From positions 600,001-632,000 of the forward strand of contig CP060232.1 in NCBI GenBank assembly GCA_023898645.1: a DNA stretch of 32,000 nt. The letters run 5' to 3'. Under the pieces are notes generated by a model. That model made no database searches and had not been told where the DNA came from. It was given only the letters and a program-made list of their open reading frames with translations. The stretch's first letter is position 1; each line of letters opens with the position of its first letter. Both the position numbers and the translations under genes were made by a program. Positions 5,943 to 25,687 of the stretch are shown one piece after another. This DNA is from Candidatus Saccharimonadota bacterium. Its GTDB lineage: Bacteria; Patescibacteriota; Saccharimonadia; Saccharimonadales; Saccharimonadaceae.

Positions 5943-5982
5943 TTCTTTTCTCCTTTACTTTACGTAACGGAGTTAGGACACG

Positions 5983-6097: not shown

Positions 6098-6213
6098 AGG
6101 TCAGTACGTGAAGTAAGGAGTTTCATTTAACCGTCTGTTACAATACAAGCAGAAGATTCGTGTTTGGCTCGACTGCGAGAAAACAGGAGTCTTCTTTTTG
6201 CTATACTGTAATT

Positions 6214-6405: not shown

Positions 6406-6415
6406 CCAGATCCCA

Positions 6416-6685: not shown

Positions 6686-6816
6686 ATCGTCCCTTTCTAT
6701 GGGCTGAATGGAGCACCGTGCCGTATGGTCGGTTGCTGGTAGGCCATAGAGTCAGATCTCTCGCTACGCTCTTGATATTAAATTGTTAACGTGTTACCAA
6801 TCTAGCATAAGCATTG

Positions 6817-7572: not shown

Positions 7573-7682
7573 ACGGTCATTATAGCAATAGATCTGCTGC
7601 TGCTCCACTGTAGTGAATAATGAGAATCTACGAACATAATTTCCAAAAACCTTGCGAATATTTGTTGAAAACTCACGAAATA

Positions 7683-7716: not shown

Positions 7717-8340
7717 ATGATTGGCGCTAAAGATGCGAGCAGATACACCGCAGGTCTCACTGGTGAAATTTTTCTCTTTAATGAGTCGCGTACGTTAGCT
7801 GGTTTTTTGGCACAAGGCGAGGATCCAGATGCACTTCGTACTCGTAATTTAGCCGAAAACCTCATTATGTATAAAAAAGACAGCAGCCTAAAGCGTGTTT
7901 CTCCACCGATATTCCGCCGCCTCGCCACGATGTCACCTGTCGCGCTCGAAATCTTTGTAAGTGCAGACCTGGAGTCATCACGCATCCTTCTTCTTATCGC
8001 CATCGCAAAGACAGATCGTCTGGTGCGCGATTTTTTGTTGACTGTCTACGCCGACAAGATAGCGCTCAAAGCCACTAAAATAGATAGATCAGATATCGAG
8101 CGCTACTTCGAATCAGTGTACGCCGAAGAGCCTCTTTTGCGGGATAAGTCAGATATCACTAAAATGAAGCTCAAGCAACAGCTTATGAAAAACATGGTCG
8201 AGGCCGGTCTCGTCAAAAAACAAGCTGACGGTTTTGTTGTTACGCGACCAAATATTACTACTCGTCTTGCCAATCAGTTGACCGCAGATGGTGACAGTGA
8301 GTATCTAAAAGCTTTAGGTGGTGAAGGAGGCGCATTATGA
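7717..8340 (+). CDS. brxA: BREX protein BrxA (DUF1819)
   Basis: About 200 aa, first gene of the operon, with an ATGA overlap onto brxB. Helical protein of the expected size and position. Sequence-level recognition is weaker than for the other BREX genes. Confidence 0.75.
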   Translation: MIGAKDASRYTAGLTGEIFLFNESRTLAGFLAQGEDPDALRTRNLAENLIMYKKDSSLKRVSPPIFRRLATMSPVALEIFVSADLESSRILLLIAIAKTDRLVRDFLLTVYADKIALKATKIDRSDIERYFESVYAEEPLLRDKSDITKMKLKQQLMKNMVEAGLVKKQADGFVVTRPNITTRLANQLTADGDSEYLKALGGEGGAL

Positions 8341-8909
8341 AAAAATCTATTCAAGATCGACTAAGGGACTTGCGTGGCAAAGTCCGCAGTCACGATCTGT
8401 CACAAGGCGGCGGGCTTGGTAATGAGGTTAATTACCATATTTTTGACTATGACCCTGAAGACGAGCAGGCTGTCATGCGCGAAGTCGCCAATATAGCCAA
8501 GAGCCTGAGCAATGTAAAAGTTTTCAATATCCATGACATTATCATCGAAATCCTCAAAGAAAAAAACTACCTCGAAAAATCGTTTGAACTTGAACAGAAA
8601 AAAGGCAGCGACTTCGTCAACAAGGCGATCATGCGCACCCTCAAAACCGATAGCAAAAACGGTCTCATCGTCGAAAAGATCGCTAGAGGCGTCAAAAAAG
8701 GCGATATCATTTTTCTTACCGGCATAGGTCAGTCGCACCAAATTATCCGCGCACATACACTGCTGGCCAACCTCCAGAGCGTTATTAACGACACCGAAAA
8801 TCCCGTTATTTTGTTTTACCCCGGCAGCTACGATAGGCAGGCACTCAGCTTGTTTAACGTATTTCCGGCCGAAAATTATTACCGAGCATTCAAATTAGTT
8901 GAGAGATAA
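8337..8909 (+). CDS. brxB: BREX protein BrxB (DUF1788)
   Basis: 190 aa with IFDYDPEDE near the N-terminus and FYPGSYD...NYYRAFKL at the C-terminus, which are the hallmarks I recognise for DUF1788. Confidence 0.85.
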   Translation: MKKSIQDRLRDLRGKVRSHDLSQGGGLGNEVNYHIFDYDPEDEQAVMREVANIAKSLSNVKVFNIHDIIIEILKEKNYLEKSFELEQKKGSDFVNKAIMRTLKTDSKNGLIVEKIARGVKKGDIIFLTGIGQSHQIIRAHTLLANLQSVINDTENPVILFYPGSYDRQALSLFNVFPAENYYRAFKLVER

Positions 8910-8927
8910 AGAAAGGTTCAAGCCCAT

Positions 8928-11900
8928 ATGCAATTGAAGGATCTATACAAAAAAGATATCACCCGTGAGATTCAGGGTGTCATTAAAGTTGACGACGAAC
9001 ACTCGATCGCCCAAGAGCTCGACGAATATATCGTCACCGATGAGATTGCCAAGCATCTCGATACATTCTTCGAAAGCTACAGCAAAGGACTCGGCACCTC
9101 TCGCACCGAGCAGATGGGCGTCTGGCTGTCTGGTTTCTTTGGATCAGGTAAGTCACACTTTCTCAAGATTGTCAGTCACTTGCTCGACAACCGCGAAGTA
9201 AACGGCAAAAAAGCCGTCGACTACTTCGACGACAAAATTCATGACGCCATGCTACTTGGCAATATCAAACGTGCTGGCGAGACGTCTTCTGACATCATCC
9301 TCTTCAATATCGACACCAAATCTTCGCTCGAAAACACCACGAGCAAGGATAAGATCCTTGCAGTGATCGAAAAAGTCTTCAACGAAAAGCTCGGCTTCAG
9401 CCACATTAATTTCGTTGCCGATATCGAACGCCATCTACAAGAAAAGGGTAAATACGAAGAGTTCAAAGCTAAATTTGACGACTGGTCATCGATTCGTTCA
9501 GACTTCGACTTCAACCAGTACGAAATCGCCGAAAAATACGCCGAAGTCATGGGCGTCAGCTCCGATGAAGCCAACAAAATCTTCGACAACCGCCGCGACA
9601 CCTACCAAGTTTCACCTGAGTCATTTGCTCAGCGGGTGCAGGAATACATCGAAAAACGCGGCAACGACCATCACGTAGTTTTCCTTATCGACGAAGTTGG
9701 TCAATATATCGGCAACAATGGCTCACTTCTGCTCAACCTCCAGTCAATCGTCGAAGAGCTCGGCGTACGCACCAACGGCCGCGCATGGGTCATTTGTTCC
9801 AGTCAAGAAGCCATCGACGATGTCGTAAAAGGTGTCAAAAAGGACGACTTCTCGAAGATTCTTGGTCGCTTCGACACCAAAATCAAGCTCTCTAGCACCG
9901 ATATCGACGAAGTTATCCGCCAGCGACTGCTCGCCAAGACAGACGACGCTACGACGTCACTGGTGTCCACTTACAACACTCGTCAGGCAGAGATTGCCAA
10001 CCTGCTTACTTTCGGTGAAGGTGGCACCTACAAGGCCACCTACCGCAGCGCTCAAGATTTTGCCGCTACCTATCCGTACATCCCGTACCAGTTCAAGCTC
10101 CTGCAAGATACCTATATGAGCATCCGTGAGAAAGGCTTTGCGGGTGCACACCTAAGCTCTGGTGCTCGTTCACTTCTCGGCGCTATCCAGGAGACCGCAA
10201 AGGCTCATGCAAACAGCGAGATTGGGACACTTGTACCGTTTTCCGCCTTTTTTGAAACCGTTGTTACGGCAATAGATAGCTCGATCATTCAAATATTCGA
10301 TCAAGTGGACAGGATGATTAAAGAAGGTGTACTTGAGCCGCAAGATAAAGAAATATTGAAGACGCTTTTTATGTTGCGCAGTGCTCAAGAAACGATGCCG
10401 ACCAATCTCGATAACCTAGCCGTCCTTTCAGTGACAAATTTGTCAGACAATATCCTCGATATCAAAAAGAATCTTGCCGATAGCCTGAAGCGGCTCGAAG
10501 ACCGCGTGCTCATCCAAAAGCTCGGCGACAACTACCGCTTCCTCACCGACGAAGAACAAGACATCAACCGCGAAATCAAAAGCCAAACCTTTGATCCGAA
10601 TGACATCTCGACTACGCTTGGCGAAGTGATTCGCGGCACTATCGACTCGAAGTACAAATACACTAATGGCCGTGTTTTCTCGCTCGATCTCTTCATGGAC
10701 GATAACAAAATTAATGGTGGCTCAAACGAATTAGCCCTCAGGTTCACCTCGGGCGAGCTACAATCTGTCCAGGCTGAATCGATGCGCCAAAGCAACGCAG
10801 CATTTATCATCACGCCACTGTCGATCGACCTCCGCAACGACATCGAAACTGCTGTAAAGGTTGAAAAATACATCCGCTCACAAGCTGGTATCAAGAACGA
10901 CCCAGAGCGCGACAAGATTATCGCCGCTCGCCGCACCGAAATGGAAGGCCTCAAGGAGAAGATCTCCGCTGACTTCGCCGACAATATCCGAAGCGCCGCT
11001 GTCGCCATCAACGGTACAGAAGTCGACATCCCAGCCCGTGAAAGTGTCACGACTCGCCGCGATCTCATCCTGGAAGAGCTCGTCAAATCCGTGTACACCA
11101 AGATCGAATACATCAAAGCACCGTGTAGCCGCAGCAATATCAAGCGTCTGCTGACACTGCCAAAAATGGAGCTCGAAGTCGCTACCGCCAACACCAAGGC
11201 CGAAGACGCCATCAACGAATACATCATCGAGCAGGCTCGCAACCACGTACCGGTCACCCTCGAAAGTATCGTGCGCGATTTCAAATCAGCCCCATTCGGC
11301 TTCACCGACGAAGATGTCGCCTACATCGTAGCGTACCTTATGAAAACCGAGCTAATCAGCTTAATCTACAATGGCACGACACTCGCACCAACTGCCGATA
11401 CCGCAGATATCTTGCTCAAATCAGCCAATGACGGCAAAATCACCATCAAAGTCCGTGAACGCATCGATAACCAACTGCTCGATACTGTCCGTAGCTTGGC
11501 GCGCGATTTGTTCGACACCACCGCACTCGGTGATACCGAGGACGCTATGGCAGATAGTCTACGCCACGAAATTGATACCAAGCTCGAAGCTACAACTGCT
11601 TATTTGCAGAAGTACAACTACGCTAGCTATCCGGGCAAGTCTGTCGTCGAGAGTGTCAATACGCTTCTTCGTGAGCTCAAACAAATCCGCGACACCAAAG
11701 ACCTGTTCGATGTGCTTGATGCCAAGCAGAACGACCTGCGCACGGCGTTCGACGCCTACAAGCCAGTTGTCAGCTTCTTTGAACACCAAGTAGCTATCTT
11801 TGACCGAGCCATAGCAGCTGTCAAAGATTACGATTTCGTTAGCTCGTCTATCACTGTTAATTCACCAGAAGTCACCCAGATTCGCGACATCTTGGCACAG

Positions 11901-12236
11901 GATAGCCCGTACGGTGACATCCCGAAGCTTTCGCCATTGACATCTGCCGTGGAGCAGGCTGTCAAAACTGGCCGCGACGAGCTCCAAAAGCGTGCCGACG
12001 AAGCCCGCAAGCTCGAAGAGCAGCGCCGCAAAGCCGAAGAAGAGGCGAGGAGGGCCGAAGCCGCAGGCCAGCAGCCAGCCGAACTACCAAAAGTCGCCAA
12101 ACCTGTCCGTTCGGGCGATCTCATCAACCGCACTTACTCGCTGAAGAGTGAGGCTGATGTCGACGCCATGCTCGGCGAACTTCGCCAGCGACTACTACAA
12201 GAACTTGCCGACAATGGCGAGGTAAGGGTTATTTAG
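8928..12236 (+). CDS. brxC: BREX ATPase BrxC/PglY
   Basis: 1102 aa. P-loop GFFGSGKSHFLK near residue 70, DEVGQY Walker-B-like segment, and a position between brxB and pglX. Confidence 0.9.
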   Translation: MQLKDLYKKDITREIQGVIKVDDEHSIAQELDEYIVTDEIAKHLDTFFESYSKGLGTSRTEQMGVWLSGFFGSGKSHFLKIVSHLLDNREVNGKKAVDYFDDKIHDAMLLGNIKRAGETSSDIILFNIDTKSSLENTTSKDKILAVIEKVFNEKLGFSHINFVADIERHLQEKGKYEEFKAKFDDWSSIRSDFDFNQYEIAEKYAEVMGVSSDEANKIFDNRRDTYQVSPESFAQRVQEYIEKRGNDHHVVFLIDEVGQYIGNNGSLLLNLQSIVEELGVRTNGRAWVICSSQEAIDDVVKGVKKDDFSKILGRFDTKIKLSSTDIDEVIRQRLLAKTDDATTSLVSTYNTRQAEIANLLTFGEGGTYKATYRSAQDFAATYPYIPYQFKLLQDTYMSIREKGFAGAHLSSGARSLLGAIQETAKAHANSEIGTLVPFSAFFETVVTAIDSSIIQIFDQVDRMIKEGVLEPQDKEILKTLFMLRSAQETMPTNLDNLAVLSVTNLSDNILDIKKNLADSLKRLEDRVLIQKLGDNYRFLTDEEQDINREIKSQTFDPNDISTTLGEVIRGTIDSKYKYTNGRVFSLDLFMDDNKINGGSNELALRFTSGELQSVQAESMRQSNAAFIITPLSIDLRNDIETAVKVEKYIRSQAGIKNDPERDKIIAARRTEMEGLKEKISADFADNIRSAAVAINGTEVDIPARESVTTRRDLILEELVKSVYTKIEYIKAPCSRSNIKRLLTLPKMELEVATANTKAEDAINEYIIEQARNHVPVTLESIVRDFKSAPFGFTDEDVAYIVAYLMKTELISLIYNGTTLAPTADTADILLKSANDGKITIKVRERIDNQLLDTVRSLARDLFDTTALGDTEDAMADSLRHEIDTKLEATTAYLQKYNYASYPGKSVVESVNTLLRELKQIRDTKDLFDVLDAKQNDLRTAFDAYKPVVSFFEHQVAIFDRAIAAVKDYDFVSSSITVNSPEVTQIRDILAQDSPYGDIPKLSPLTSAVEQAVKTGRDELQKRADEARKLEEQRRKAEEEARRAEAAGQQPAELPKVAKPVRSGDLINRTYSLKSEADVDAMLGELRQRLLQELADNGEVRVI

Positions 12237-12237
12237 T

Positions 12238-15200
12238 ATGAGCTCGATGGACAAAAAACTACTCAAAGACTTTGCTATGAAATCGCGCGAAACGCTGACC
12301 GCGCTTGTTGCCGCCAAACTTCAAGCCATGCACGTCACCGAAGATATCGCCTGGGTGCAAAAAGGCGAAGTTTACCAGGCTATCATCGATGGCCGTAATG
12401 TCACACTGTACCCGAGTGACAAAGACCGTTACGACAAGCTTCGTGCCGCAGTCAAAGCCGAAGGTATCAAGCAGATCACCGAAAAAGCCGCCTACACCTG
12501 GTTCAACCGCATTGTCGCCATCCGCTACATGGAGCTTCGCGAGATGTTACCACAGGGCAAACACAACGAATGGCTCGGTATTCGCGTATTATCAGACGGC
12601 AACAACGAACCCGACCCAGAAATCCTAAAGATCAGTAACTTGCGAAGAGCAGATCTCGACCTCCCGCTAAACGCCGATGATATCATCAAACTCCCACGCG
12701 ACGACCAAAAGTTCCGCGAGGTACTGTTTGCCGTTGTCAAAAAGCTCGGGGCAGTCATGCCAGACGTCTTCAACGGCGACACGACTAGCATTAACTTCCT
12801 GCTTCCAGACAACTTGCTCGGCAGCGGCGGTTTTGTCAATGAAATCCTCAAACTCCCCGTAGAGTGCTTCGACAGGGTCGAAGTCATCGGCTGGCTGTAC
12901 CAATACTACAACCAAGCCGAAAAAGACATCGCCATGAAAAAGAAGTCGGCGGTCGAAAAAGATGAGATCCCCTATGTCACCCAGATTTTCACCCCTGACT
13001 GGATCGTCAAATACATGGTCGAAAACTCCCTTGGTCGCTACTGGCTGGAGCATGGCGGCGACCCTAAGCTAGCCGACAACTGGAAATACTTGATCAAGAG
13101 CGACCAGCAAGTGACGACGACAAAGACTATGCCGAACATCGAAGACGTCACGTTTATCGACCCCTGCATGGGTAGTGGGCACATCCTCGTCTACGCCTTT
13201 GAGGTGTTTTACCAGATTTATCGTTCGCTGGGCTACGCCCCAGAGCAAATTCCAGAAAAGATCCTCTCGCACAACATCTACGGCCTGGATATCGATGACC
13301 GCGCTAAACAACTATCAATCCTCTCGGCTATGCTTGTGGCCAGGGAGTACGACAAAGACATATTCAGCAAAGACATTCAGCTGAATATTACTAGTGTCGC
13401 CGAAAGCAACGGCATGAGCAGCCTGCCAGACCTACTGAAAGGCGCCAGCAAAGACACCGCCGAATACCTACTCGACGCCTTTCGTGATGCCAAAGAATAC
13501 GGCAGTATATTGCGAGTCAAATCGCAAAACTACACCGACCTGCAAAGCCAGCTAGAAGAATTATCCCCAATAGAGAAACCACTTTACTACGCCAAAACAA
13601 AACAGCTCATCCACCAAGCAGACATTCTAAGTAAAAAGTACACGATTGCGGTGACGAATCCGCCGTATATGAACAAATACGACGCCAAATTAAAAGCCTA
13701 CATTGGTGCAAATTATCCCGAGACTAAGTCGGATATGTACTCCGTATTTATGGAAGTCCTAAGTGATCATCTCGTTAGCGGCGGACGCATGGCAATGGTC
13801 ACACCGGATAGCTGGATGTCCTTGACGGGGCAAGCCAAACTTCGCGAGCGTCTAGAAAACGAAGCTCACATATCGAGCATGATTCACCTTGGTAATGGCG
13901 CGTTCCCAGATGTCGTCGTGTCTACGACCGCATTTACGCTCGTAAAGGGCGATGCTATTTCGATCGGCGATTACATCCGAGATGTTACCGGCAACGAGAA
14001 AACCAAGTATGCCACCGCACTCGCCGCCATCGACGATCCGCACCACCCTCTCCGCTACCGCGCCAGCAACGCCGATTTCGAGGTATTCCCGGGCAAGATT
14101 ATTGCGTATTGGGCGAGCGAGGCTGTGAGGAAGGCTTTTGTCATTGGCGTCAATCTAAGGGGCAGTGCGTGGGAGCCTAGGCAGGGGGCGGCCACTTCTG
14201 ATAATAATCGCTTTCTTAGATTATGGTATGAAGTTAATAGCACGAAAACTAATCTGAACGCCGAATCTGCGATCGAAGCAACACAATCTGCAAAAAAGTG
14301 GTTCCCGTACAACAAGGGCGGCGAATTTCGTAAGTGGTACGGTAATAATGACTTCTTAATTAACTATGAAAATGACGGCGAAGAATTAAAGGGTTACGCT
14401 AAAAGCCTATATAAATCAGCAACTCGCACAATAAAAAGTATTAGTGAATATTTCAAACCAAGTATAACTTGGTCAAAAATCTCGTCCGGTTCGATTGCAT
14501 TTCGTTACAAACCAGCCGGACATATCTTTGATGTAGCAGGTACAAGTATATTCGCCGACGATGCTCAGGATCTCAAGTATCTTCAAGGCGTGCTTAACAG
14601 CAGTGTAATATTAAAAATATCTAGTTATTTATCGCCAACCCTCAACTTCGAAGTTGGTCAAATCGCGACTTATCCAATTATCCAATCGCCGCAATATCGC
14701 GATGAAGTCATTCGCCTGGTCGAAGAATGTCGTGAACTCAGTAAAGCCGATTGGGACGCCTTTGAAACTTCATGGGACTTCGAGCGTCATCCACTCTTGC
14801 CGACGAGTGGCGAGACCAAGCTAAGTGACATGTACGCCGTCTGGGAATCAACCGCCGAGGATCGCTGGAGTCAGCTAAAAGCCAACGAAGAGCGGCTGAA
14901 CGAAATCTTCATTGAAGTTTACGGCATGCAGGGTGAACTGACGCCGGAGGTAGAAGACAAATATGTCAGTGTGCGCAAGGCCGACCAGTCGCGCGAAGCT
15001 CGCTCGCTGCTGTCGTATTTCGTCGGTGTCATCTTTGGTCGCTATAGCCTCGATAGCCTCGGACTCAACTTCGCCGGTGGCGAGTGGGACGCCAGCGCAC
15101 AAGGTAAACTAGTCGACGAAGATAACATCGTACCGATCATGGATGGCGAATACTACACTGACGATATAGTGAAGAAACTGCGCGACTTCCTCGTGGCCGT

Positions 15201-15723
15201 CTACGGCGAAGCAACGCTGCACGCAAACATGGACTGGCTTGCCAATGCCCTGGGGCGCAAATCGCACGAAAACGCCGAAGATACACTGCGCCGCTACTTT
15301 GTCGATGATTTCTTTGCCGACCATTTCAAAGTTTACGGCAAACGCCCAATCTACTGGCAACTCAGCAGCGGTAAACAAAACGGCTTCAAAGCATTGTTTT
15401 ACCTGCACCGCTACCAGCCAAATCTCGTAGCCACCGTCCGTACGCAGTATTTGCTTAACACCCAAAACATCTACACCAAGCGCCTAGCCGAGCTGGAGGC
15501 AAAAACGACGCTAAACAACGACGAACTCCGCCTAAAAAACGACCTCGTGGCCAAACTCGCCGAGATCAAAAGCTACGACGCACTGATCGGCGTGGCCGCC
15601 AGCGAAGCCATAGAGCTCGACCTCGACGACGGCGTTAAGACAAACTACCCCAAGCTCAGCCACGCCGCTGCAGGCGTAAAGCCTGGCAGTGAAATCCTCG
15701 AGACGAAAGGGGTCAAGCTATGA
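12238..15723 (+). CDS. pglX: BREX adenine-specific DNA methyltransferase PglX
   Basis: 1161 aa. SAM-binding motif FIDPCMGSGH, catalytic VTNPPYM, and a conserved WFPYNKGGEFRKWYG segment. Confidence 0.95.
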   Translation: MSSMDKKLLKDFAMKSRETLTALVAAKLQAMHVTEDIAWVQKGEVYQAIIDGRNVTLYPSDKDRYDKLRAAVKAEGIKQITEKAAYTWFNRIVAIRYMELREMLPQGKHNEWLGIRVLSDGNNEPDPEILKISNLRRADLDLPLNADDIIKLPRDDQKFREVLFAVVKKLGAVMPDVFNGDTTSINFLLPDNLLGSGGFVNEILKLPVECFDRVEVIGWLYQYYNQAEKDIAMKKKSAVEKDEIPYVTQIFTPDWIVKYMVENSLGRYWLEHGGDPKLADNWKYLIKSDQQVTTTKTMPNIEDVTFIDPCMGSGHILVYAFEVFYQIYRSLGYAPEQIPEKILSHNIYGLDIDDRAKQLSILSAMLVAREYDKDIFSKDIQLNITSVAESNGMSSLPDLLKGASKDTAEYLLDAFRDAKEYGSILRVKSQNYTDLQSQLEELSPIEKPLYYAKTKQLIHQADILSKKYTIAVTNPPYMNKYDAKLKAYIGANYPETKSDMYSVFMEVLSDHLVSGGRMAMVTPDSWMSLTGQAKLRERLENEAHISSMIHLGNGAFPDVVVSTTAFTLVKGDAISIGDYIRDVTGNEKTKYATALAAIDDPHHPLRYRASNADFEVFPGKIIAYWASEAVRKAFVIGVNLRGSAWEPRQGAATSDNNRFLRLWYEVNSTKTNLNAESAIEATQSAKKWFPYNKGGEFRKWYGNNDFLINYENDGEELKGYAKSLYKSATRTIKSISEYFKPSITWSKISSGSIAFRYKPAGHIFDVAGTSIFADDAQDLKYLQGVLNSSVILKISSYLSPTLNFEVGQIATYPIIQSPQYRDEVIRLVEECRELSKADWDAFETSWDFERHPLLPTSGETKLSDMYAVWESTAEDRWSQLKANEERLNEIFIEVYGMQGELTPEVEDKYVSVRKADQSREARSLLSYFVGVIFGRYSLDSLGLNFAGGEWDASAQGKLVDEDNIVPIMDGEYYTDDIVKKLRDFLVAVYGEATLHANMDWLANALGRKSHENAEDTLRRYFVDDFFADHFKVYGKRPIYWQLSSGKQNGFKALFYLHRYQPNLVATVRTQYLLNTQNIYTKRLAELEAKTTLNNDELRLKNDLVAKLAEIKSYDALIGVAASEAIELDLDDGVKTNYPKLSHAAAGVKPGSEILETKGVKL

Positions 15724-18224
15724 ATCAAGAGATCGTAAATGGCCTAGCTAAACTTCTACATAACCCAAGCATTGCCGGGCGGCGAATCGTTACCTGGTAC
15801 GACGCCGATGGGGCGAATGCTGAATATTTAGACGATATCAAACAGGCACTGCTGGATGACGGCATTGACGTCGAGATTGTTATCTTCGACGACAATCCGC
15901 TATTTGTGCGTTACCATGTACTAAATGAGGTGCGTGAGAGCAATGTCATCATCTACCGACCAACCGAACAGCCAGAGAGCGTCGATAATCAGTTGCTCGA
16001 CATCGAACTGGCCAACGCCAGCGACGTGTTTATACCAGACGAATCAACCCTGACGTTGACGGCGCTAGGGCTTTCCGACCAGTTCCGTGGTGTCGTGAAA
16101 CGCAATGGGCGATTCTTCAAAAACCAAAAGCGGGCTCGGGATATCAAGAAGTTTCTGCCCGTGAGTGAACCAAATGACTTACAGATGGCGATATTCGCCA
16201 CACTGTTTGACGCCAATGATGCCCGCCTAGAGCAGGTGTTGGCTGCGATATTCGTGAACTACAGGCAATCACGTGATGATTTTACCAACACACTGAAGTT
16301 TGTAGATAGCGAAGCACTCGCTAGCTTGTTGAGTGAGTATTTCGGGTCTCAAGCAGTCGATATCGAAAAGCTCGATAACTTGTGGGAATCGGTGCTCATC
16401 AGTTACTTCAAGTCTACGGTGAGCGCAGACATAGACTTCGGTAGGTTCAAGAGCTTTGTGCTGCCAAACCACGGTAACATCCGTATCTTTGTGCGCGATG
16501 TGATGCGCCTGTTTCCAGATGAGTTTACGGCGTTTTCCGCTGATGTTAACAAAAAGTTCGGTCTAGTTAGATTACTTGAAGGCCGTGAACTAGCGGAATA
16601 TATCGACAGCGACGCCTTCGCCGAGATTGACGATATCGTGATTACAGAGATGATCAAACGACTCTCAGACAAAGATGATATAGCTGAGCTGCTCCGTAGC
16701 CGCGAAGTCGGGTTTTACTATGTGGCGCGAAAAGCTGACTACCAGATGCTTGCTGCTGCCAACAACTTCCGCACCACAGCACGCCGAATCATGACAGAAG
16801 TAAAAAGCGTCGATCGAGACACCGCAATCTCGCGTTACGCCGACGAGTTATACAAAGTCGATACAGCCTACCGTCATTTTAACTATTACTATGACCGTAC
16901 CGATAAAACCGATGAGTACATGGAGCTGGCAAAGCAAATCGAGTATCTGTACGGCGAAGAATGGATGCTGAAGCTTGCCGAAAAATGGGAAGAATCTTCG
17001 GAGGGTGAAAACTGGACGGCAACCAAGCACTCAATACTCAGTGAGTTTTATAGCAAGTACCTAACACCGCACGACGATAAAAAAGACCGCGTATTCGTGA
17101 TTATATCTGACGGCCTACGCTACGAAGTCGCCAAAGAAATTGCCGAGCAGCAAAAACTAATTGCTACCGGTGGCGATATCTCGACCAGCTTCGCCCTAGC
17201 GCTGCTGCCGTCTATCACACCCGTTGGCATGGCGGCATTGCTCCCGCACGACAAACTAGAGTTTGACGGCGAAACAGTGCTGGCAGACGGCATGAAAACC
17301 GACGCCAGCAACCGCGACAAGGTGCTAAAAGCCGCCAACCCAGACAACTTGGCTATTAAATACGAAGAAGTCCGCGCCATGAAGAAGTCAGAGTGGAAAT
17401 CGTTCTTTTCTGGCAAAAAATACGTCTATATTTACCACGACAAAATCGACATCACCGGCGAGCACGACGACATGGCGACATTTGCCGCCGCGAGCGACGC
17501 GATTCGTGAAATCACTGATCTCATCACCGACCTACATACGACATTTAGCGGCGTTAATGTACTCGTCACTGCCGATCACGGGTTTTTCTACGAAACCGGC
17601 ACAGTAGAGTCACGACGCAAAATGCCGAAGATTCCCGAGGCTGGCAAGCAGAAAGCTCGCTATGCGATAACCGCCGCACCAGACAAGTCGGCTATGAGCT
17701 ACCGACTCAGTGATATGTTCGAAGGCAATACTAAGTACATCAATACGCCACACTCCAAGGTCATCTTTGCCAAGCAGGGTGGCGTCGGCCGATACTACCA
17801 TGGCGGCGCACTGCCACAAGAAGTCGTCGTACCGATTGTCAACTTCAAATCCTCACGCACCAGTACAGCTAGGGACAGAGTAGGAATTACCTATATCGGC
17901 ATCTCGCTCAAAATCACCAATACTATTACGCGTCTGCGCTTCCTGCAAAGCGAGCCAGTTAGTACTGACCGGATAGCTGGTCGCTACAAGGCGTGGTTTG
18001 AGGACGCTAGCGGTGCAAAAATATCCGACGAAGTAACGATCATAGCCGATTCGACCGAAAAGGATGCCGGAAGCCGCGAATATCAAGAGAAGTTTGTGTT
18101 TGCAGCGCGGCAGTACAGCCCGGAAGAGACATACTTCTTGGTGATTGAAGATGAAGATGGCGTAGAAGTTGAGCGAATAGATTTCAAGGTAGATATAGCA
18201 ATAACCAACGATTTAGGATTATAG
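15720..18224 (+). CDS. pglZ: BREX alkaline-phosphatase-superfamily protein PglZ
   Basis: 834 aa. PglZ-type motifs VFVIISDGLRYE and VTADHGF. ATGA overlap with pglX. Confidence 0.9.
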   Translation: MNQEIVNGLAKLLHNPSIAGRRIVTWYDADGANAEYLDDIKQALLDDGIDVEIVIFDDNPLFVRYHVLNEVRESNVIIYRPTEQPESVDNQLLDIELANASDVFIPDESTLTLTALGLSDQFRGVVKRNGRFFKNQKRARDIKKFLPVSEPNDLQMAIFATLFDANDARLEQVLAAIFVNYRQSRDDFTNTLKFVDSEALASLLSEYFGSQAVDIEKLDNLWESVLISYFKSTVSADIDFGRFKSFVLPNHGNIRIFVRDVMRLFPDEFTAFSADVNKKFGLVRLLEGRELAEYIDSDAFAEIDDIVITEMIKRLSDKDDIAELLRSREVGFYYVARKADYQMLAAANNFRTTARRIMTEVKSVDRDTAISRYADELYKVDTAYRHFNYYYDRTDKTDEYMELAKQIEYLYGEEWMLKLAEKWEESSEGENWTATKHSILSEFYSKYLTPHDDKKDRVFVIISDGLRYEVAKEIAEQQKLIATGGDISTSFALALLPSITPVGMAALLPHDKLEFDGETVLADGMKTDASNRDKVLKAANPDNLAIKYEEVRAMKKSEWKSFFSGKKYVYIYHDKIDITGEHDDMATFAAASDAIREITDLITDLHTTFSGVNVLVTADHGFFYETGTVESRRKMPKIPEAGKQKARYAITAAPDKSAMSYRLSDMFEGNTKYINTPHSKVIFAKQGGVGRYYHGGALPQEVVVPIVNFKSSRTSTARDRVGITYIGISLKITNTITRLRFLQSEPVSTDRIAGRYKAWFEDASGAKISDEVTIIADSTEKDAGSREYQEKFVFAARQYSPEETYFLVIEDEDGVEVERIDFKVDIAITNDLGL

Positions 18225-18231
18225 GAGGCGC

Positions 18232-20265
18232 ATGATGGACGAGATTGACACAAAACTAAACCAAGTATTTCCGGGAAGAGTTGTCCGTAAAGACCTGACG
18301 AAGAAAATCAAGGAAGGTGCCAATGTGCCAGTGTATGTGCTGGAGTATCTGCTAGGTATGTACTGTGCAACAGACGATCCGGTGGCCATCGAAGACGGCA
18401 TCGCAACAGTAAAGAAGATCCTAGCTGAGAACTTCGTCCGACCAGACGAAGCGCAAAAGGTGAAGAGTAAGATTCGTGAGCTCAAAAACTACACGGTTAT
18501 CGATAAAATCACCGTCAAGCTCAATGAAAAGAAGGATCGCTACGAGGCGGAGTTTAGTAACCTTGGCATCAAAGATGCTTACATTGATGCTGAGATTGTC
18601 AAAAAGTTCGAGAAGCTCTTGGTCGGTGGCATCTGGTGTATAACGAAGATTTCCTATTTTCATGACGAAGAAGAGCGCAATAATCTACCGTTTGTTGTCA
18701 ATGACATCAAGCCGATTCAGATGCCAAATATGGATCTAGAGGAAGTATTCAACGGCCGTCGTCAGTTTAGTAAAGACGAATGGATCGATGCGCTGATTCG
18801 TTCGATGGGCATGGAGCCATCACAGCTCGATACCCGCCAGAAATGGCACTTCCTAGAGCGTGCCGTGCCACTTGTTGAGAATAATTACAACTTGTGCGAG
18901 CTTGGCCCGCGCGGTACCGGTAAGTCACATATCTACAAAGAAATTTCACCGAACTCTATCTTGGTATCTGGTGGTCAAACGACTGTCGCTAATTTGTTCT
19001 ACAATATGTCGAATAAAACCGTTGGCCTCGTTGGGCTGTGGGATGTAGTAGCTTTTGACGAAGTTGCCGGAATTACCTTCAAAGACAAAGACGGCATCCA
19101 GATCATGAAAGATTACATGGCGTCTGGATCGTTTGCACGCGGTAAGGAAGAAAAGAACGCAACCGCTTCGATGGTATTCGTTGGCAATATCAACCAATCA
19201 GTCGAGGTAATACTAAAGACATCTAACTTGTTCGAGCCGTTCCCCGAAGCTATGAACCGCGATACCGCGTTCTTTGATCGCATGCATTACTATCTGCCGG
19301 GCTGGGAGATTCCAAAGATGCGACCAGAGCTTATTACGAATAGCTATGGGTTCATTGTTGATTACTTGGCAGAGTTCTTCCGCGAGATGCGCAAGCGCAC
19401 ACACAGCGATGCTATCGACAAGTACTTTAGGCTGGGCAAGGAGCTAAATCAACGAGACGTGATTGCGGTAAAAAAGACCGTCTCAGGACTTGTAAAATTA
19501 CTGTATCCGCACGGTGAATTTAGTAAGGACGAGATCGAGGAAGTTATTCGCTACGCTATCGAAGGTCGTCGTCGTGTCAAAGAGCAGCTGAAGCGAATCG
19601 GCGGCATGGAATTCTTTGACATTCACTTATCGTACATCGACAACGATAACGACGAGGAGCGAATCGTATCCGTACCCGAGATTAGCGGCGACAAGTTGAT
19701 TTCTGACACAGCGCTCAAGGCTGGTCATGCATACTTTGTTGGTCGTGGTACATCCGGGCAGATCGGCACCTTCCGTATCGAAACCGAGACTCCTGGCGGT
19801 AACGGCAAGATGTCTATCACCGGAATTGGCACTGATAGGCTTACGAAAGAATCGATCAACACAGCTTTTCACTATTTCAAGGCTAACCGCAAAAGCATCA
19901 GCGCCAGTATGAACGTCGATAGTAACGACTTCTTGATTCATATCGAAGACCTGCAAGGGGTAGGCCCAAGTAGCGAAATTGCACTCGCAACGTTTGTATC
20001 CCTCGTATCATCTTCGCTTAAGAAGCAGGTCAAAGAAGGCATGGTCGTGCTCGGCAACCTTACGATCGGTGGCACAATCAGCAAAGTCGATGACTTAGCT
20101 GACACGCTCGAAGTTTGTTTCGACGCCGGTGCTCGCACGATACTGCTACCAATGTCATCTGCTGCGGACATCTCCACCGTACCCGCCGAAACTTTCTCAA
20201 AGTTCAACATCAGCTTCTACAATGACCCCGAGGATGCTGTGCGAAAGGCGCTAGAGATCGGATAG
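18232..20265 (+). CDS. brxL: BREX Lon-like protease BrxL
   Basis: 677 aa. Walker A ELGPRGTGKSH, AAA-like core and a C-terminal Lon-protease-like domain. It lies 8 nt after pglZ. Confidence 0.9.
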   Translation: MMDEIDTKLNQVFPGRVVRKDLTKKIKEGANVPVYVLEYLLGMYCATDDPVAIEDGIATVKKILAENFVRPDEAQKVKSKIRELKNYTVIDKITVKLNEKKDRYEAEFSNLGIKDAYIDAEIVKKFEKLLVGGIWCITKISYFHDEEERNNLPFVVNDIKPIQMPNMDLEEVFNGRRQFSKDEWIDALIRSMGMEPSQLDTRQKWHFLERAVPLVENNYNLCELGPRGTGKSHIYKEISPNSILVSGGQTTVANLFYNMSNKTVGLVGLWDVVAFDEVAGITFKDKDGIQIMKDYMASGSFARGKEEKNATASMVFVGNINQSVEVILKTSNLFEPFPEAMNRDTAFFDRMHYYLPGWEIPKMRPELITNSYGFIVDYLAEFFREMRKRTHSDAIDKYFRLGKELNQRDVIAVKKTVSGLVKLLYPHGEFSKDEIEEVIRYAIEGRRRVKEQLKRIGGMEFFDIHLSYIDNDNDEERIVSVPEISGDKLISDTALKAGHAYFVGRGTSGQIGTFRIETETPGGNGKMSITGIGTDRLTKESINTAFHYFKANRKSISASMNVDSNDFLIHIEDLQGVGPSSEIALATFVSLVSSSLKKQVKEGMVVLGNLTIGGTISKVDDLADTLEVCFDAGARTILLPMSSAADISTVPAETFSKFNISFYNDPEDAVRKALEIG

Positions 20266-20274
20266 GTAGATATT

Positions 20275-22611
20275 ATGCCAATCACGAGAATAAAATCCAT
20301 CAAGCAGATAGGCCGATTCAAGAACTTTACCGGCGGCGGATCTGTACCACTAGCTAATCTTAATGACGGCAAAAATATAGCTGTTATTTATGGTGACAAT
20401 ACCTACGGCAAATCAACGCTTGCCGATATACTTCGCTCCACTAACCTTAGTAGCGACGTGGAAATTATTCGACGCAAAACAATCCCTAAAGATGACGGCT
20501 CAAACCAAAGCTTTGAGCTGTCATATCAGCATTCTGCTGCGAGTAGACAGGAAAGTGTCAAGTATGACCGAACGGCTTGGTCTAATAATGTCCTGGTGGG
20601 GAAAATATTAATTTTTGATCAGGAGTTTATCCATCAGAATATCTTTACAGGCATTCACCTCACACGAGACAATAAGGAGAATTTTACAGATTTTATACTA
20701 GGGGAAGAAGGAGTTAAAATCGGAGCAGAGATTGAGAGGCGGAACATTGCTTCAAAAAAATTCCCCGATGAGCTAAGACTAGTGAGGCCTGAATATGTCC
20801 GAGCCGAAGCTGATAATAAAAAGGTTGAGAGTTTTATTGGCCTTAATGTTACAGACAGTAGAAAAGCCTTAGAAGGTGAAATAGACACACAAAATAAGTT
20901 AATCAAGCGACTTAGCCGTGTCTCAGAGTTCACAAACCTGCAACCGCCAAAGTCGCAACCTGAAAGATATTCTACCACTTTCAACGGCTTAAAAGAGCTT
21001 ATTGCAAAGGTTAAAGCCTCTTCGTACGACGACGTATCTAGAGACGCACTTGACCAGATCCATGAGCGCCTCCAGCAGACTGATAGCCACTGGCTTGAGC
21101 AAGGAACCAAACATCTCCTAGGCGATAAATGTCCATACTGCACGCAAGACATACTACCGGTGAAATCACTAATAGATGCATACAAAACTGTGTTCGATAA
21201 AAAATACGACGAGTACGTGAGTAGCACCAATAAAGACATTCTTACAATTAAATCCACATTGAGCACACTATCTGCAACACAGCACTCCAAGCGGCTTAGC
21301 TTGGAGATTGAAAAGGTCAAGAAATACGCGCCATTCATTGGCGAGATTAAGGACCTTATTGTAACACTGGATACGCAACTTGAATCACTACAGGCATCCG
21401 AGTCTAACATGCGTAATTATATAGCTGAGTCGCTAGAGCAATCTGTCGACACTTTCGTGACTTATAAGAAAGAAAACATACATAAGCAATGCGACTACCC
21501 TGTAGCTATAGACGGATTAAGCAATATAATAGGCATCGCCGATAATAATAATGATCAGCTACAAAAGACCATTAGTGCATGTGCATCGGTTATCGAAACA
21601 AAGCGCGAAGAAGTTAGCAGATGGACTCCGGATGTAGTCACGGAAAACCGCAAAAAAGCCACCGACGCCATTTCCTTATGTGAAGCGAAGATTAATCGAC
21701 TAGATCAGGATGTACAATGCCGTACGTATGTCGCTAAACAGTTAGAGCAAAAAGAGTTTAAAGAATATACAGCTAAGCTTCAGGAAAAACTTGAAAGTGA
21801 ACAGTCGCATTATCTAGAAACTCTGTTTACCTCTATAAACGGATGGTTTAGCAAATTAGGCAGCCAAGATTTTAAACTAGATAAAAACCAGTCTAGGCGC
21901 GGCAATAAAACAGTGTACGAGCTTCGTGTGTTATTTTGCGATGAATTAGTCGACAACGATGACTTAAGCAAGGTATTTAGTGAGTCAGATCGTAGAAACT
22001 TAGCTCTTGCAGTTTATCTGTCTCGAGCCGAGCTATTAACTAAAGAAGATACAATCCTAGTGCTTGATGATCCTGTAGTAAGCTTCGACGATAATCGCAT
22101 ACGCGCCACCTGTGCTGAATTATCGCGGTTAGCCAAAGATTTTGAGCAGATAATCATTCTAACCCACTATAAGACAGTAATCAGGAGACTCCTTAAGAGC
22201 CGTGTAGGTGCCGTCTATTTAAAAGTTGAGAAAGACGGTACGGGGTCAAGGTTGGGGGTATTGAATACGAAAGATCTTCACTTGTCGGATCACGAACGAG
22301 CATACCTAAGACTGGCATCCTTTGTAAACGGCACCTCTAATGACCCTGGCGGCTTGCGCCAATTTATGGAAAAGCACATAGACCTAGTCTTTCAGCCTAA
22401 ACTGAGAGAGTTAGGGCTTAGCGATGCGATGCTGAGTGAAAAAATCTCATCTCTTGAAACTGCGGGAGAGATCGACTCTAGCACAAAAAGTAAGCTTGAC
22501 GGATTCAGGGACACACTCAATCCAGATCACCATAACGATGAAGAGGACGCGACTATTGAAGACATGAGGCTACTCACGAGATCCGTTCTTGAAGAAGTGT
22601 ATAAGCTTTGA
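20275..22611 (+). CDS. AAA_13-type ABC ATPase with CxxC hook, PrrC/RloC-like (possible anticodon nuclease)
   Basis: Walker A GDNTYGKST, signature-like FSESDRRNLALAVYLS, Walker B ILVLDDPVVSFD, H-loop IIILTHY. Long coiled-coil insert carrying CPYC (aa 286-289). C-terminal R695-x3-E699 and H752/H753. Starts 9 nt after brxL. Confidence 0.65.
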   Translation: MPITRIKSIKQIGRFKNFTGGGSVPLANLNDGKNIAVIYGDNTYGKSTLADILRSTNLSSDVEIIRRKTIPKDDGSNQSFELSYQHSAASRQESVKYDRTAWSNNVLVGKILIFDQEFIHQNIFTGIHLTRDNKENFTDFILGEEGVKIGAEIERRNIASKKFPDELRLVRPEYVRAEADNKKVESFIGLNVTDSRKALEGEIDTQNKLIKRLSRVSEFTNLQPPKSQPERYSTTFNGLKELIAKVKASSYDDVSRDALDQIHERLQQTDSHWLEQGTKHLLGDKCPYCTQDILPVKSLIDAYKTVFDKKYDEYVSSTNKDILTIKSTLSTLSATQHSKRLSLEIEKVKKYAPFIGEIKDLIVTLDTQLESLQASESNMRNYIAESLEQSVDTFVTYKKENIHKQCDYPVAIDGLSNIIGIADNNNDQLQKTISACASVIETKREEVSRWTPDVVTENRKKATDAISLCEAKINRLDQDVQCRTYVAKQLEQKEFKEYTAKLQEKLESEQSHYLETLFTSINGWFSKLGSQDFKLDKNQSRRGNKTVYELRVLFCDELVDNDDLSKVFSESDRRNLALAVYLSRAELLTKEDTILVLDDPVVSFDDNRIRATCAELSRLAKDFEQIIILTHYKTVIRRLLKSRVGAVYLKVEKDGTGSRLGVLNTKDLHLSDHERAYLRLASFVNGTSNDPGGLRQFMEKHIDLVFQPKLRELGLSDAMLSEKISSLETAGEIDSSTKSKLDGFRDTLNPDHHNDEEDATIEDMRLLTRSVLEEVYKL

Positions 22612-22716
22612 CTGTTCGATTTGTCGTCGTGGACGCTACGCACCTAGGATAAAACATTGACCATTCGCCATTTTATATGCTACATTTATTTTTGAAGGGT
22701 CTTGTATGATACTTAC

Positions 22717-22752
22717 GACGCTCCGAGGGTATATCCTTCGGCGCGTCTTTTT
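22717..22752 (+). terminator. Rho-independent terminator closing the seven-gene operon
   Basis: 13-position stem at 22717-22729 / 22735-22747 (one mismatch, one G-T), loop TATAT, then TTTTT at 22748-22752. Confidence 0.7.
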
Positions 22753-22835
22753 ATATTATCGGCAGTGTATCGGTCTTCAACGAAGTTCAGACCTACCTCT
22801 CGTTTGAACGATTTGCCGCAAACGGAAGGTTGCCT

Positions 22836-23827: not shown

Positions 23828-24172
23828 GTGGGGCTAAAAAAGACACAATACATCGTAGCACTTATTATCGCAGTCGGTCTGCCATTCATTTTGGCTGATC
23901 CTGCATTTGCACAAACACCGGGCGGCGTAAGTAACGTCGAAAACTTTATACGGAGCGTAATCACCGTTCTGGCAGGACTTGCCGGTCTGGTTGCGACCGG
24001 CTTTTTTGTCGCTGGTGGATTCACCTATATCACGAGTTCGGGTAATCCTGAGCAGCTCGACAAGGCAAAGCGTACACTGACTTGGTCAGCAATCGGACTG
24101 GCTATCGTTATCGCTGCTTTTGTCCTAGCTAACATCGTCACGACACTCGCAACACAGGCGTTCGGAGGATAA
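23828..24172 (+). CDS. T4SS pilin (VirB2/TrbC-like, Gram-positive/CPR type)
   Basis: Signal peptide ending AFAQ, two hydrophobic helices, and the motif GGFTYITSSGNPEQLDKAKRTL. GTG start with SD GAGGGAG. Confidence 0.7.
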   Translation: MGLKKTQYIVALIIAVGLPFILADPAFAQTPGGVSNVENFIRSVITVLAGLAGLVATGFFVAGGFTYITSSGNPEQLDKAKRTLTWSAIGLAIVIAAFVLANIVTTLATQAFGG

Positions 24173-24181
24173 TCAAAAACC

Positions 24182-25687
24182 ATGTGGGGTTTTGAAGATG
24201 CCCTATTGATGGGTCTAGGTACGTTTGCGGACACATCGCAGGCAATCGCCTCGATGCGTGAGTATGTCATGCCGGTGGTTCAGATATTATCTGGCCTCGC
24301 CGGTCTTGTTTGTACCTTCTTCATTGTTCAAGCTGGCTATTTATATATCACGAGTAGCGGTAAGCCCGACCAGATGGAACACGCCAAAGATGTACTAAAA
24401 AAGGCGCTCCTTGGCCTGATTATTGTGCTTGCCGCCATAACACTCACAACTATCTTAACCAACGCCTACGGCACACCGCAAAGCCCTGGTAATGCCACGC
24501 TACCTAGCCTTGAAGCAGTACAAGAGGAAGAGCAAAGCAGCGGCTTCCTCGATATGGTCGTTAAAGCTATCACTGGCGTCTTAGCACAGATTATCAACGG
24601 AGTGGCGACGCCATTCTTGGATGCGCTCGACTTCTTCACTACCGGTACGCCTGCTATGGCGAGTAATCCGAGTGTCTTTAACTTTTGGCTGGCTATGGTA
24701 GGTATAGCTAACATCCTGTTCATACTTGTGCTCGTGCTAATCGGCTTTCATGTCATGAGCGCATCGGCACTTGGTTTTGATGAGGTCGAGCCAAAACATC
24801 TCGTGCCACGAGTCGCCATGATCTTCGTCCTGATGAATACCTCAATATTCCTTATTGACGGAATAATTGCGTTATCTAATGCGCTTATCAAGGCGGTAGG
24901 TTTAATCTCTGGATCGTCATCTGTCTGGGATACGCTGATGAAAGTAGTTGAGCAGACGTCTGGCCTAGGTATTGCCGCTCTGTTGATCATGGTAGGTTTC
25001 GTCATTTGTTCGATCGTGTTGCTGGTCTATTATGTTATGCGTCTTGTTACACTCTACATCGGAGCAGTACTTGCGCCGCTTGTTAGTCTCCTCTGGTTAA
25101 TTCCCGGATTTCGTGACTTCACAGAAACGGCATTCAAAACCTATCTTACAACTATCTTCGATCTATTTGTTCATGTTGTCATATTGCAGCTATCGGCATC
25201 ACTGTTTACTGGTATGGCGACAGCCTCGGGTGACAACGCCGTGCCAGACACTCTTATGGCGATGGTGACGGGTATTGCGACTATTTTAATGCTCTTGAAA
25301 GCTCAGAGCGTCATGATGCAGTTTAGCTACGTAAGTATGGGCGCACGCAACATGCGTAAGCTAAGCGGGCAGTTTGTAAATGGCGTGAGTTATCTGAGCG
25401 GTAAAACAAGAGCGGCCGCAAGCACCATTAGCTCAAAGACCGATACGGCTAAAAAGAGCCGCATGATCCGTAGTGTTGAGTCACGAGCCGTCAGTACAGG
25501 CAAGACTCAAACGATTCGCTATCAAAACAAGAAAGGCACGGCAGAGATTGCACATACCGCCACACCGACTAAGCCTAGGTCGTCTACGCGAACCGGCACA
25601 ACATATGAAGCTCCGACCGTTAAGGTGACTCGTGTACCAGCATCTTCGACCACACCAAGGAATAACAGTAAGGATAAAACGCTATGA
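24182..25687 (+). CDS. Polytopic T4SS membrane protein (VirB6/TrbL-like) with an N-terminal pilin-like domain
   Basis: N-terminal AGYLYITSSGKPDQMEHAKDVLKKALLGLIIVLAAITL is paralogous to the pilin. It is followed by about 6 TM helices and an S/T/K/R-rich tail. Confidence 0.55.
   Translation: MWGFEDALLMGLGTFADTSQAIASMREYVMPVVQILSGLAGLVCTFFIVQAGYLYITSSGKPDQMEHAKDVLKKALLGLIIVLAAITLTTILTNAYGTPQSPGNATLPSLEAVQEEEQSSGFLDMVVKAITGVLAQIINGVATPFLDALDFFTTGTPAMASNPSVFNFWLAMVGIANILFILVLVLIGFHVMSASALGFDEVEPKHLVPRVAMIFVLMNTSIFLIDGIIALSNALIKAVGLISGSSSVWDTLMKVVEQTSGLGIAALLIMVGFVICSIVLLVYYVMRLVTLYIGAVLAPLVSLLWLIPGFRDFTETAFKTYLTTIFDLFVHVVILQLSASLFTGMATASGDNAVPDTLMAMVTGIATILMLLKAQSVMMQFSYVSMGARNMRKLSGQFVNGVSYLSGKTRAAASTISSKTDTAKKSRMIRSVESRAVSTGKTQTIRYQNKKGTAEIAHTATPTKPRSSTRTGTTYEAPTVKVTRVPASSTTPRNNSKDKTL

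Follow-up and report, generated by a model that had tools for sequence, protein, structure and literature searches.

An RloC-like gene with a putative anticodon-nuclease domain lies directly downstream of brxL in a BREX locus of a Saccharimonadota bacterium

RloC, described from G. kaustophilus (GkaRloC) and C. jejuni (rloC/E/G), is an anticodon nuclease that excises the wobble nucleotide. The family was defined by PrrC-like ABC motifs combined with a Rad50-like coiled-coil insert that carries a CX2C hook, in proteins of 658 to 897 amino acids (aa) with a C-proximal Arg-X3-Glu-X36-52-His motif in which Ser often precedes the His; rare or low-usage codons were noted in rloC genes (Davidov & Kaufmann 2008, PMC2610378). 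The nuclease of GkaRloC is unleashed by ATP hydrolysis, which DNA and especially linear DNA stimulates, and mutation of the hook short-circuits this switch (PMC3458546). For EcoPrrC, an alanine scan by Shuman found R320, E324, R349, N352 and H356 to be essential and S355 to be dispensable (PMC3025547). PrrC and RloC carry nuclease domains that have been classed as divergent HEPN domains, and RloC-family HEPN genes within Pgl-type operons (PglX, PglZ, Lon-type ATPase) were reported in 2013 (Anantharaman et al., PMC3710099). Under a guilt-by-embedding approach, genes that lie within BREX, DISARM or type I restriction-modification (R-M) systems were the source of the candidate set to which PDC-S06 belongs, and embedded ABC-ATPase systems have already been discussed as a BREX back-up against Ocr, which inhibits BREX (Payne et al.). 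Here we examined an RloC-like gene that directly follows a type I BREX operon in a 32,000-nucleotide stretch (the window; positions 600,001 to 632,000 of contig CP060232.1, assembly GCA_023898645.1) of Candidatus Saccharimonadota bacterium, a member of the candidate phyla radiation (CPR). Since RloC (2008), RloC-family genes in Pgl/BREX operons (2013) and the idea of embedded defense are all published, no new system is described. What is added is that the sub-family recognized by the PADLOC model PDLC04895 lies within type I R-M systems in about one-third of its loci, and is thus PrrC-like genomically and unlike the early picture of RloC; to this are added evidence for an ancient linkage to BREX and the CPR setting on an apparent integrative conjugative element.

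We favor, at a probability of roughly 0.55, the reading that the gene encodes an RloC-family protein, with a Rad50-like ATPase, a zinc hook and a putative tRNA-cutting domain, that would act as a latent abortive second line of defense behind BREX. The predicted protein had each of the four features by which RloC was defined, namely, the size, the ABC motifs, the coiled-coil insert with CX2C and the C-proximal Arg-x3-Glu...His. The PDC-S06 model PDLC04895 matched residues 3-777 on profile positions 2-778 of 784 (E = 1.5e-151). The gene and its parts, all on the + strand, were as follows; counts are out of the 62 sequences of one alignment, in which the window protein was joined by 61 homologues that came from species-representative genomes and shared 19-34% identity with it.

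20275..22611, + strand: RloC-like gene, 778 aa, with ABC ATPase, coiled coil/zinc hook and putative anticodon-nuclease C-terminal domain (open reading frame [ORF], Pfam, PADLOC and AlphaFold2 [AF2])
20392..20415, + strand: Walker A/P-loop GDNTYGKS, aa 40-47 (N42, G45, K46 and T48 invariant in the 62 sequences)
20665..21855, + strand: long alpha-helical (coiled-coil) insert dividing the ATPase head, aa 131-527 (AF2 secondary structure)
21130..21141, + strand: CPYC zinc-hook motif in the apex loop, aa 286-289 (C286 and C289 in 62/62; family consensus CPFCGQ)
21973..21993, + strand: ABC signature region VFSESDR, aa 567-573 (S569 invariant; D572 in 60/62)
22054..22092, + strand: Walker B and D-loop, ILVLDDPVVSFDD, aa 594-606 (D598, D599, P600, S603 and D605 invariant)
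22159..22170, + strand: H-loop/switch histidine, LTHY, aa 629-632 (H631 in 62/62)
22261..22608, + strand: all-helical C-terminal domain, aa 663-778, putative HEPN-type anticodon nuclease (AF2 pLDDT 88, six helices)
22357..22371, + strand: R695-x3-E699, first half of the candidate catalytic constellation (R695 in 62/62, E699 in 60/62)
22507..22533, + strand: R745-x3-N749-x3-H753 (RDTLNPDHH), HEPN-like R...H (H753 in 62/62, N749 in 53/62, R745 in 45/62)

Pfam AAA_13 spanned residues 27-637 of the protein (E = 2e-26), and this match, together with the Walker A motif G40DNTYGKS47, bore out the initial annotation, made from the letters of the sequence, which had called an AAA_13-type ABC ATPase. 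Full-length homologues measured 757-803 aa, and PDLC04895 matched all 62 of the sequences tested. In the AF2 model of the 778-aa protein (mean pLDDT 83.7, built on 26 homologues), residues ~1-130 and ~530-662 together formed the ABC head, and the CPYC motif sat at the apex, in a loop of low confidence that joins helices 251-266 and 294-334. When the model was compared with the PDB by Foldseek, the heads and coiled coils of SMC, Rad50, cohesin/condensin, RecN and Lamassu LmuB proteins were recovered (E down to 8e-10); sequence searches of the PDB matched only the signature/Walker B region of Rad50, in a stretch that includes aa 567-573. W273, R608 and Q625 were further invariant positions. The invariance of C286, C289, R695 and H753, with E699 in 60 of the 62 sequences, was far above chance expectation at 19-34% identity. 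The prediction of a Rad50/RloC-type hook at CPYC held, given the two invariant cysteines and the coiled-coil insert of the model, and alignment and model together support a candidate zinc hook on a Rad50-like coiled coil.

The initial annotation had also compared R695-x3-E699 and the pair H752/H753 with the Arg-Glu-His triad of PrrC/RloC. All of these residues were found where they had been placed, but only H753 is the conserved histidine; position 752 is variable (H in 23/62 and S in 19/62). Because 753 is invariant and 752 varies, H753 and not H752 is, from the alignment, the catalytic candidate. An exhaustive search with a profile of the C-terminal domain recovered 629 cluster representatives, and, among the 150 matches listed, the full-length proteins (~780 aa) carried the domain at their extreme C terminus. 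The domain was homologous to the C termini of more distant AAA_13 proteins, with R-x3-E and the His aligned (hhalign E = 2-3e-7). Apparent stand-alone domains and apparent PrrC-length proteins were rejected on inspection: the short proteins from a word-indexed profile search were gene-call fragments of one sub-clade, and the PrrC-length proteins (394-396 aa) from the exhaustive search were C-terminal fragments without a Walker A motif.

Names given to the family by others vary. Homologues are called "wobble nucleotide-excising tRNase" by JGI and only "AAA family ATPase" by PGAP, and proteins of B. cereus that are RloC for DefenseFinder are PDC-S06 for PADLOC (PMC11811056, supplementary file 6). 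The JGI name and the DefenseFinder call lend indirect support to the RloC assignment.

The gene lies at the end of a contiguous set of BREX genes, all six of which were named by Pfam and lie on one strand.

7717..20265, + strand: type I BREX operon
7717-8340, + strand: brxA (Pfam BrxA)
8337-8909, + strand: brxB (Pfam BrxB)
8928-12236, + strand: brxC (Pfam BrxC domains)
12238-15723, + strand: pglX (Pfam Eco57I/N6_Mtase)
15720-18224, + strand: pglZ (Pfam PglZ)
18232-20265, + strand: brxL (Pfam BrxL_N/BrxL_ATPase/Lon_C)
20266..20274, + strand: 9-nucleotide (nt) spacer from the brxL stop to the ATG of the RloC-like gene, GTAGATATT; its length and most of its bases are kept in L091
22717..22752, + strand: intrinsic terminator, a 12-bp hairpin followed by a U-run (dG -24.7 kcal/mol, z -4.3 versus shuffles)

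The placement proposed by the initial annotation was thus largely recovered: brxA, brxB, brxC, pglX, pglZ and brxL precede the gene, the brxL stop falls at 20265, and the ATG follows 9 nt later at 20275. Of the interval that had been assigned to the gene (20275-22752), the start was correct; the end was not, since the ORF stops at 22611 and 22752 takes in the terminator. That terminator had been taken for the only one. It was indeed the strongest + strand candidate from brxA to that point in a terminator scan, and its hairpin is kept in the related elements L091-L093 (three contigs from three samples, making up a lineage termed P0002). On the other side, terminator-like matches in the region were not enriched overall over shuffles (24 versus 20.8 expected), and a consensus scan gave weak promoter-like matches close to the start of the gene. 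The gene is likely co-transcribed with the six BREX genes, at the end of their operon. No gene for a partner nuclease or effector (HNH, Mre11-type or other) was found in the operon, and the next gene, beyond the terminator, encodes an HxlR-family regulator.

The spacer between the RloC-like gene and hxlR (22655-22760; L091 4730-4835) has features of its own. From a promoter-like element to the start of hxlR, the mean column identity in L091-L093 was 87%, and the ~55 nt right after the stop codon of the RloC-like gene were not conserved in the same contigs. The promoter-like element, TTGACC-18 nt-TACATT at 22657-22686 (+ strand), lies ~30 nt upstream of the hairpin and U-run. No match to this spacer was obtained in an Rfam search. 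The spacer may specify a leader or a short RNA, in which case the terminator would have a second role.

It had been suggested that the gene entered the operon later than the BREX genes, from a GC content of about 35% as compared with about 53% for brxL. The direction of this difference was right and its size was wrong: the gene has 42.3% GC (42% at third codon positions) versus 47.6% for brxL (56% at third codon positions), and the lowest 300-nt window within the gene has 38.7%. The L091 allele has the same offset (42.2% versus 46.7% for the L091 brxL), and the lower GC is consistent with the rare codons noted in rloC genes (PMC2610378). The window and L091 were then compared over a block of synteny (window 18232-22611 versus L091 313-4689) and its flanks. 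Amino acid identity was 96.6% for BrxL, 62% for the RloC-like protein, 83% for HxlR and 72% for the C terminus of PglZ. By the Nei-Gojobori method, brxL gave a pS of 0.61 and a pN of 0.023 and the RloC-like gene gave a pS of 0.85 and a pN of 0.24; all four of the genes compared had synonymous sites that were saturated or nearly so (pS of 0.61 for brxL and 0.82-0.86 for the other three). The RloC-like protein thus evolves ~10 times faster than BrxL, and the coiled coil is its fastest part (55% identity). Relative to the 62%-identical allele, the gene is collinear and free of indels, with a pN/pS of 0.29, and it is under purifying selection. Because a second lineage has the same 9-nt junction and the same GC offset despite saturated synonymous sites, the two elements appear to have diverged anciently with the brxL junction retained, and the linkage, judged from these substitutions, is old; the suggestion of a later insertion was therefore dropped. 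Cassette swapping, which the contrast between 97% identity for BrxL and 62% for the RloC-like protein might suggest, was also rejected, since synonymous saturation in all four genes indicates different constraint and not recent replacement.

About 95 independent related loci were examined in total. A phmmer search of 79 species-representative loci, with queries for hsd and for BREX, recovered type I hsd genes around the gene in 28 loci, with few exceptions on its own strand, and BREX genes in none. By Pfam, the immediate upstream neighbor was Methylase_S in 13/75 loci and N6_Mtase in 6/75; the immediate downstream neighbor carried HsdR domains in 11-12/79 and Methylase_S in 4/79. In 12 loci, hsdR starts within -19 to +13 nt of the end of the gene. 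A metagenome scan gave six distant relatives, four of which have the arrangement hsdS-gene-hsdR with 4-nt overlaps. Type I R-M genes accompany the family far more often than chance would predict, and about one-third of the loci are embedded in the slot occupied by prrC. No further BREX-linked relative was found in either the 79 species-representative or the 6 metagenome loci; BREX linkage is rare and, apart from the window itself, was seen only in the P0002 lineage (62% identical), in which the synteny is as in the window (brxL-9 nt-gene-hxlR-pilin gene of a type IV secretion system [T4SS]). The closest relatives (56-62% identity) adjoin BREX or type I R-M. A statistical association of homologues with BREX or R-M, on which the initial annotation had made its proposal depend, was therefore found for type I R-M and was not found for BREX among the species-representative loci. 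Other contexts included a PglX-like methylase with RhuM-Fic and DUF2130, an AbiJ neighbor, and plasmids or mobile elements. Some members are solitary amid housekeeping genes, and members that lack a partner system there argue for autonomy of the protein.

Other genes recur beside the relatives. A DUF2130 gene is repeatedly found 3' of the RloC-like gene, often over its stop codon; RhuM/Fic genes recur nearby (L001, L010, L036 and L094); and Metallophos (Mre11/SbcD-type) is the next gene in 5/79 loci. These neighbors, none of which is within the window, may be partner genes.

DUF2130 / RhuM-Fic neighbor examples among relatives: L007 6893-8134; L094 2376-3614; L095 2586-3938; L021; L051; L001 13458-14738

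In a solitary relative on a serine-recombinase element (L009, lineage P0010), weak matches to 2',5' RNA ligase/CPDase (2H phosphoesterase) lie at 9050-9580, ~2.3 kb downstream of the gene, and this gene could be tied to RNA end processing or repair.

Several observations weigh against the assignment to RloC. H753, the invariant histidine, lies at a spacing of 53 from E699, one past the published 36-52 (for H752 the spacing is 52). The C-terminal domain did not match the PADLOC PrrC model, which touched just 2 of the 62 family members, and, among 13 PDC-S06 hidden Markov models (HMMs), the domain matched only the sub-model PDLC04895. At least one PDC-S06 protein of E. coli was missed by DefenseFinder; therefore, the PADLOC group is broader than DefenseFinder's RloC model. 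The HEPN matches were below threshold: Pfam DUF4145 gave an E value of 0.083, and hhalign to a DUF4145 protein gave 0.055, below significance, over an L..I..L...R..N...H stretch. The top TM-scores in Foldseek (0.45-0.51) belonged to HepT/HEPN toxins, yet all had E values above 1 (best, 1.8). Nothing meaningful was recovered for the domain in a sequence profile search of the PDB, and no Foldseek match was significant. As for the motif itself, HEPN proteins have R-x4-6-H; R745 and the invariant H753 are separated by x7, outside this range, and R745-x6-H752 fits, yet 752 is variable and R745 is present in only 45/62. An all-alpha helical bundle, which belongs to the HEPN definition of Anantharaman et al. 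(2013), was found in the AF2 model of the domain. A relationship of the C-terminal domain to HEPN is suggestive only.

The RloC reading implies the following course of events, for which we infer the tRNA substrate, the trigger and the abortive outcome by analogy. By comparison with G. kaustophilus RloC, the protein would be latent as a dimer whose ATPase and zinc-hook switch restrain the nuclease. An infection signal, for which DNA ends or a perturbed DNA-bound defense complex are candidates, would be sensed by the head and coiled coil and lead to ATP hydrolysis, and hydrolysis would release the C-terminal nuclease. The freed nuclease would cut the anticodon loops of tRNAs, translation would stop, and an abortive second defense would thereby stand behind BREX. 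With an internal switch of this kind, BREX proteins would not be needed for silencing, and co-transcription and co-transfer would amount to layered defense.

A latency of the PrrC type is possible, and we consider it the best of the alternatives, well behind the internal switch of RloC. In such a scheme, which is the one favored by the initial annotation, BREX proteins (e.g., a complex with the methyltransferase PglX) would physically bind and silence the nuclease until anti-BREX factors of phages, such as Ocr-like DNA mimics or a SAM (S-adenosylmethionine) lyase, released it, and the gene would thereby guard the integrity of BREX. The precedent is PrrC silenced by EcoprrI (PMC3710099, PMC2610378). 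The 9-nt junction with brxL and the common terminator are what such a scheme would lead one to expect, as is the fact that a second lineage, diverged to saturation at synonymous sites, has retained the brxL linkage; moreover, the family fills the prrC slot between hsdS and hsdR, with stop/start overlaps in many type I R-M operons, and the closest relatives adjoin BREX or type I R-M. However, many family members are solitary, so that a partner is not obligatory, BREX linkage was absent from all 79 species-representative loci, and the characterized RloC has an internal zinc-hook/ATPase switch that needs no R-M partner (PMC3458546).

A broader version of the same idea is slightly more doubtful. 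Type I R-M, like BREX, is Ocr-sensitive, and the protein could be a portable guard that docks on Ocr-sensitive N6-adenine-methyltransferase complexes (BREX here and type I R-M in the relatives), stays silent until a phage factor disables the complex and then cuts tRNA. If this were true, latency of the PrrC/EcoprrI type would extend to BREX and to CPR bacteria.

We regard it as unlikely that the protein is not a ribonuclease at all. It would then be an SMC/Rad50-like DNA sensor or tether of BREX or R-M, with a C-terminal domain that is regulatory, mediates interaction or recruits a nuclease (cf. Lamassu, Septu and SbcCD). Significant structural matches were obtained only for the head and coiled coil (SMC, Rad50, RecN and LmuB), LmuB HMMs match many homologues, the C-terminal domain had no significant match to any solved nuclease, and a Metallophos gene comes next in 5/79 relatives, all of which would suit such a sensor. 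Yet the R, E, N and H of the C-terminal domain resemble the site of a metal-independent RNase and mirror the essential residues of PrrC/RloC, the domain is always fused C-terminally in the full-length matches listed, and the window gene is followed by an HxlR regulator and not by a partner nuclease gene. That the gene is a mere passenger, decaying or without function, caught at the 3' end of the operon, as its third-position GC below that of the BREX genes and a divergence between related elements far above that of brxL (62% versus 97% amino acid identity) might suggest, is very improbable, since the ORF is full-length with all ATPase and candidate nuclease motifs intact, is collinear without indels with a 62%-identical allele at a pN/pS of 0.29 and has the same GC offset in the other lineage, low-usage codons being a trait of rloC genes (PMC2610378).

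The wider setting of the locus in the window is that of a mobile element.

384-458, + strand: tRNA-Trp, overlapping the 3' end of the serine recombinase gene
402-2063, - strand: large serine recombinase gene
2775-3563: replication-relaxation-like/relaxase-like gene
4930-5598, + strand: gene for an HNH endonuclease and WYL fusion, 222 aa, a short way upstream of BREX
6817-7608, - strand: CBS-domain gene
Downstream of the RloC-like gene, past the terminator: HxlR regulator gene
23828-31732: Firmicutes-type T4SS genes (pilin, TrbL/VirB6-like, VirB4/CD1110-like, CHAP hydrolase and VirD4-like coupling protein)

Because BREX is flanked by the tRNA-Trp/serine recombinase pair, the relaxase-like gene and the T4SS genes, this looks like one end of an integrative conjugative element in a CPR genome, with BREX and the RloC-like gene riding on it. 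The HNH-WYL protein could be a variant of a BrxR-like regulator or a separate defense gene. Between its gene and the CBS gene (5600-6800, ~1.2 kb), all ORFs were of 93 aa or less, and no Rfam match was obtained. The VirB4/CD1110-like ATPase is spread over two ORFs on the + strand, of which 26168-26797 encodes the N-terminal part and abuts the other, 26797-28566; this reflects either a natural split or a frameshift. An integrative conjugative element that carries BREX and an RloC-like gene in a reduced CPR genome is an unusual context and a useful data point on defense in episymbiotic CPR bacteria. Should the RloC-like protein prove active, BREX would have an abortive back-up built into its own locus, and the pair would be tractable for asking whether BREX licenses a toxic tRNase as EcoprrI licenses PrrC.

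Among known systems, Rad50/SbcC, SMC, RecN and LmuB share with the window protein the ATPase head and the antiparallel coiled coil, and Rad50 also shares the zinc hook; they differ in that they are without the helical C-terminal domain with its R, E, N and H and work with separate nuclease or kleisin partners. Septu, Lamassu and SbcCD differ likewise, since the window gene has no adjacent gene for a partner nuclease. The genes known to be embedded in BREX (PARIS AriA/AriB, BrxU/GmrSD, the HEPN protein pEK499_p136 and RloC-family genes in Pgl operons) resemble the window gene as accessory, potentially abortive modules at BREX. In PARIS, the ABC-ATPase sensor AriA responds to anti-restriction proteins, but the system is not a TOPRIM-free single polypeptide like the window protein, and BrxU is a DNA nuclease. 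PDC-S06 is a heterogeneous candidate group of at least 13 HMMs, and only PDLC04895 shares the C-terminal domain of the window protein at the sequence level.

PrrC resembles the window protein in having an N-terminal ABC ATPase domain and a C-terminal nuclease domain (putative in the window protein), in its back-up defense logic and in its genomic slot, relatives of the window gene being found between hsdS and hsdR where prrC lies. R695, E699, R745, N749 and H753 are the motif-level counterparts of R320, E324, R349, N352 and H356; the N-x3-H spacing is equal, one extra residue separates R from N, and position 752 (S or H) corresponds to S355. PrrC differs in being smaller, at 341-416 aa, and in having an ABC NTPase domain that no insert interrupts, whereas the 778-aa window protein has a coiled-coil/zinc-hook insert of ~400 aa. 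Its gene, too, always accompanies type I R-M (hsdM-hsdS-prrC-hsdR), whereas the window gene follows brxL.

RloC differs from the window sub-family in the reported rarity of its R-M linkage (8/73, versus about one-third of loci within type I R-M), and the partner operon of the window gene is BREX. In other respects the two are alike. At 778 aa the window protein lies inside the 658-897 aa class, with an ABC head split by a coiled coil that has a central CxxC hook; Ser precedes the His in 19 of the 62 sequences of its family; the codon composition is unusual; and R-M genes, RhuM and Fic are occasional neighbors. When compared by published motif positions, K44, C291, D572, R692, E696 and H737 of GkaRloC correspond to K46, C286 and C289, D598 and D599, R695, E699 and H753 of the window protein.

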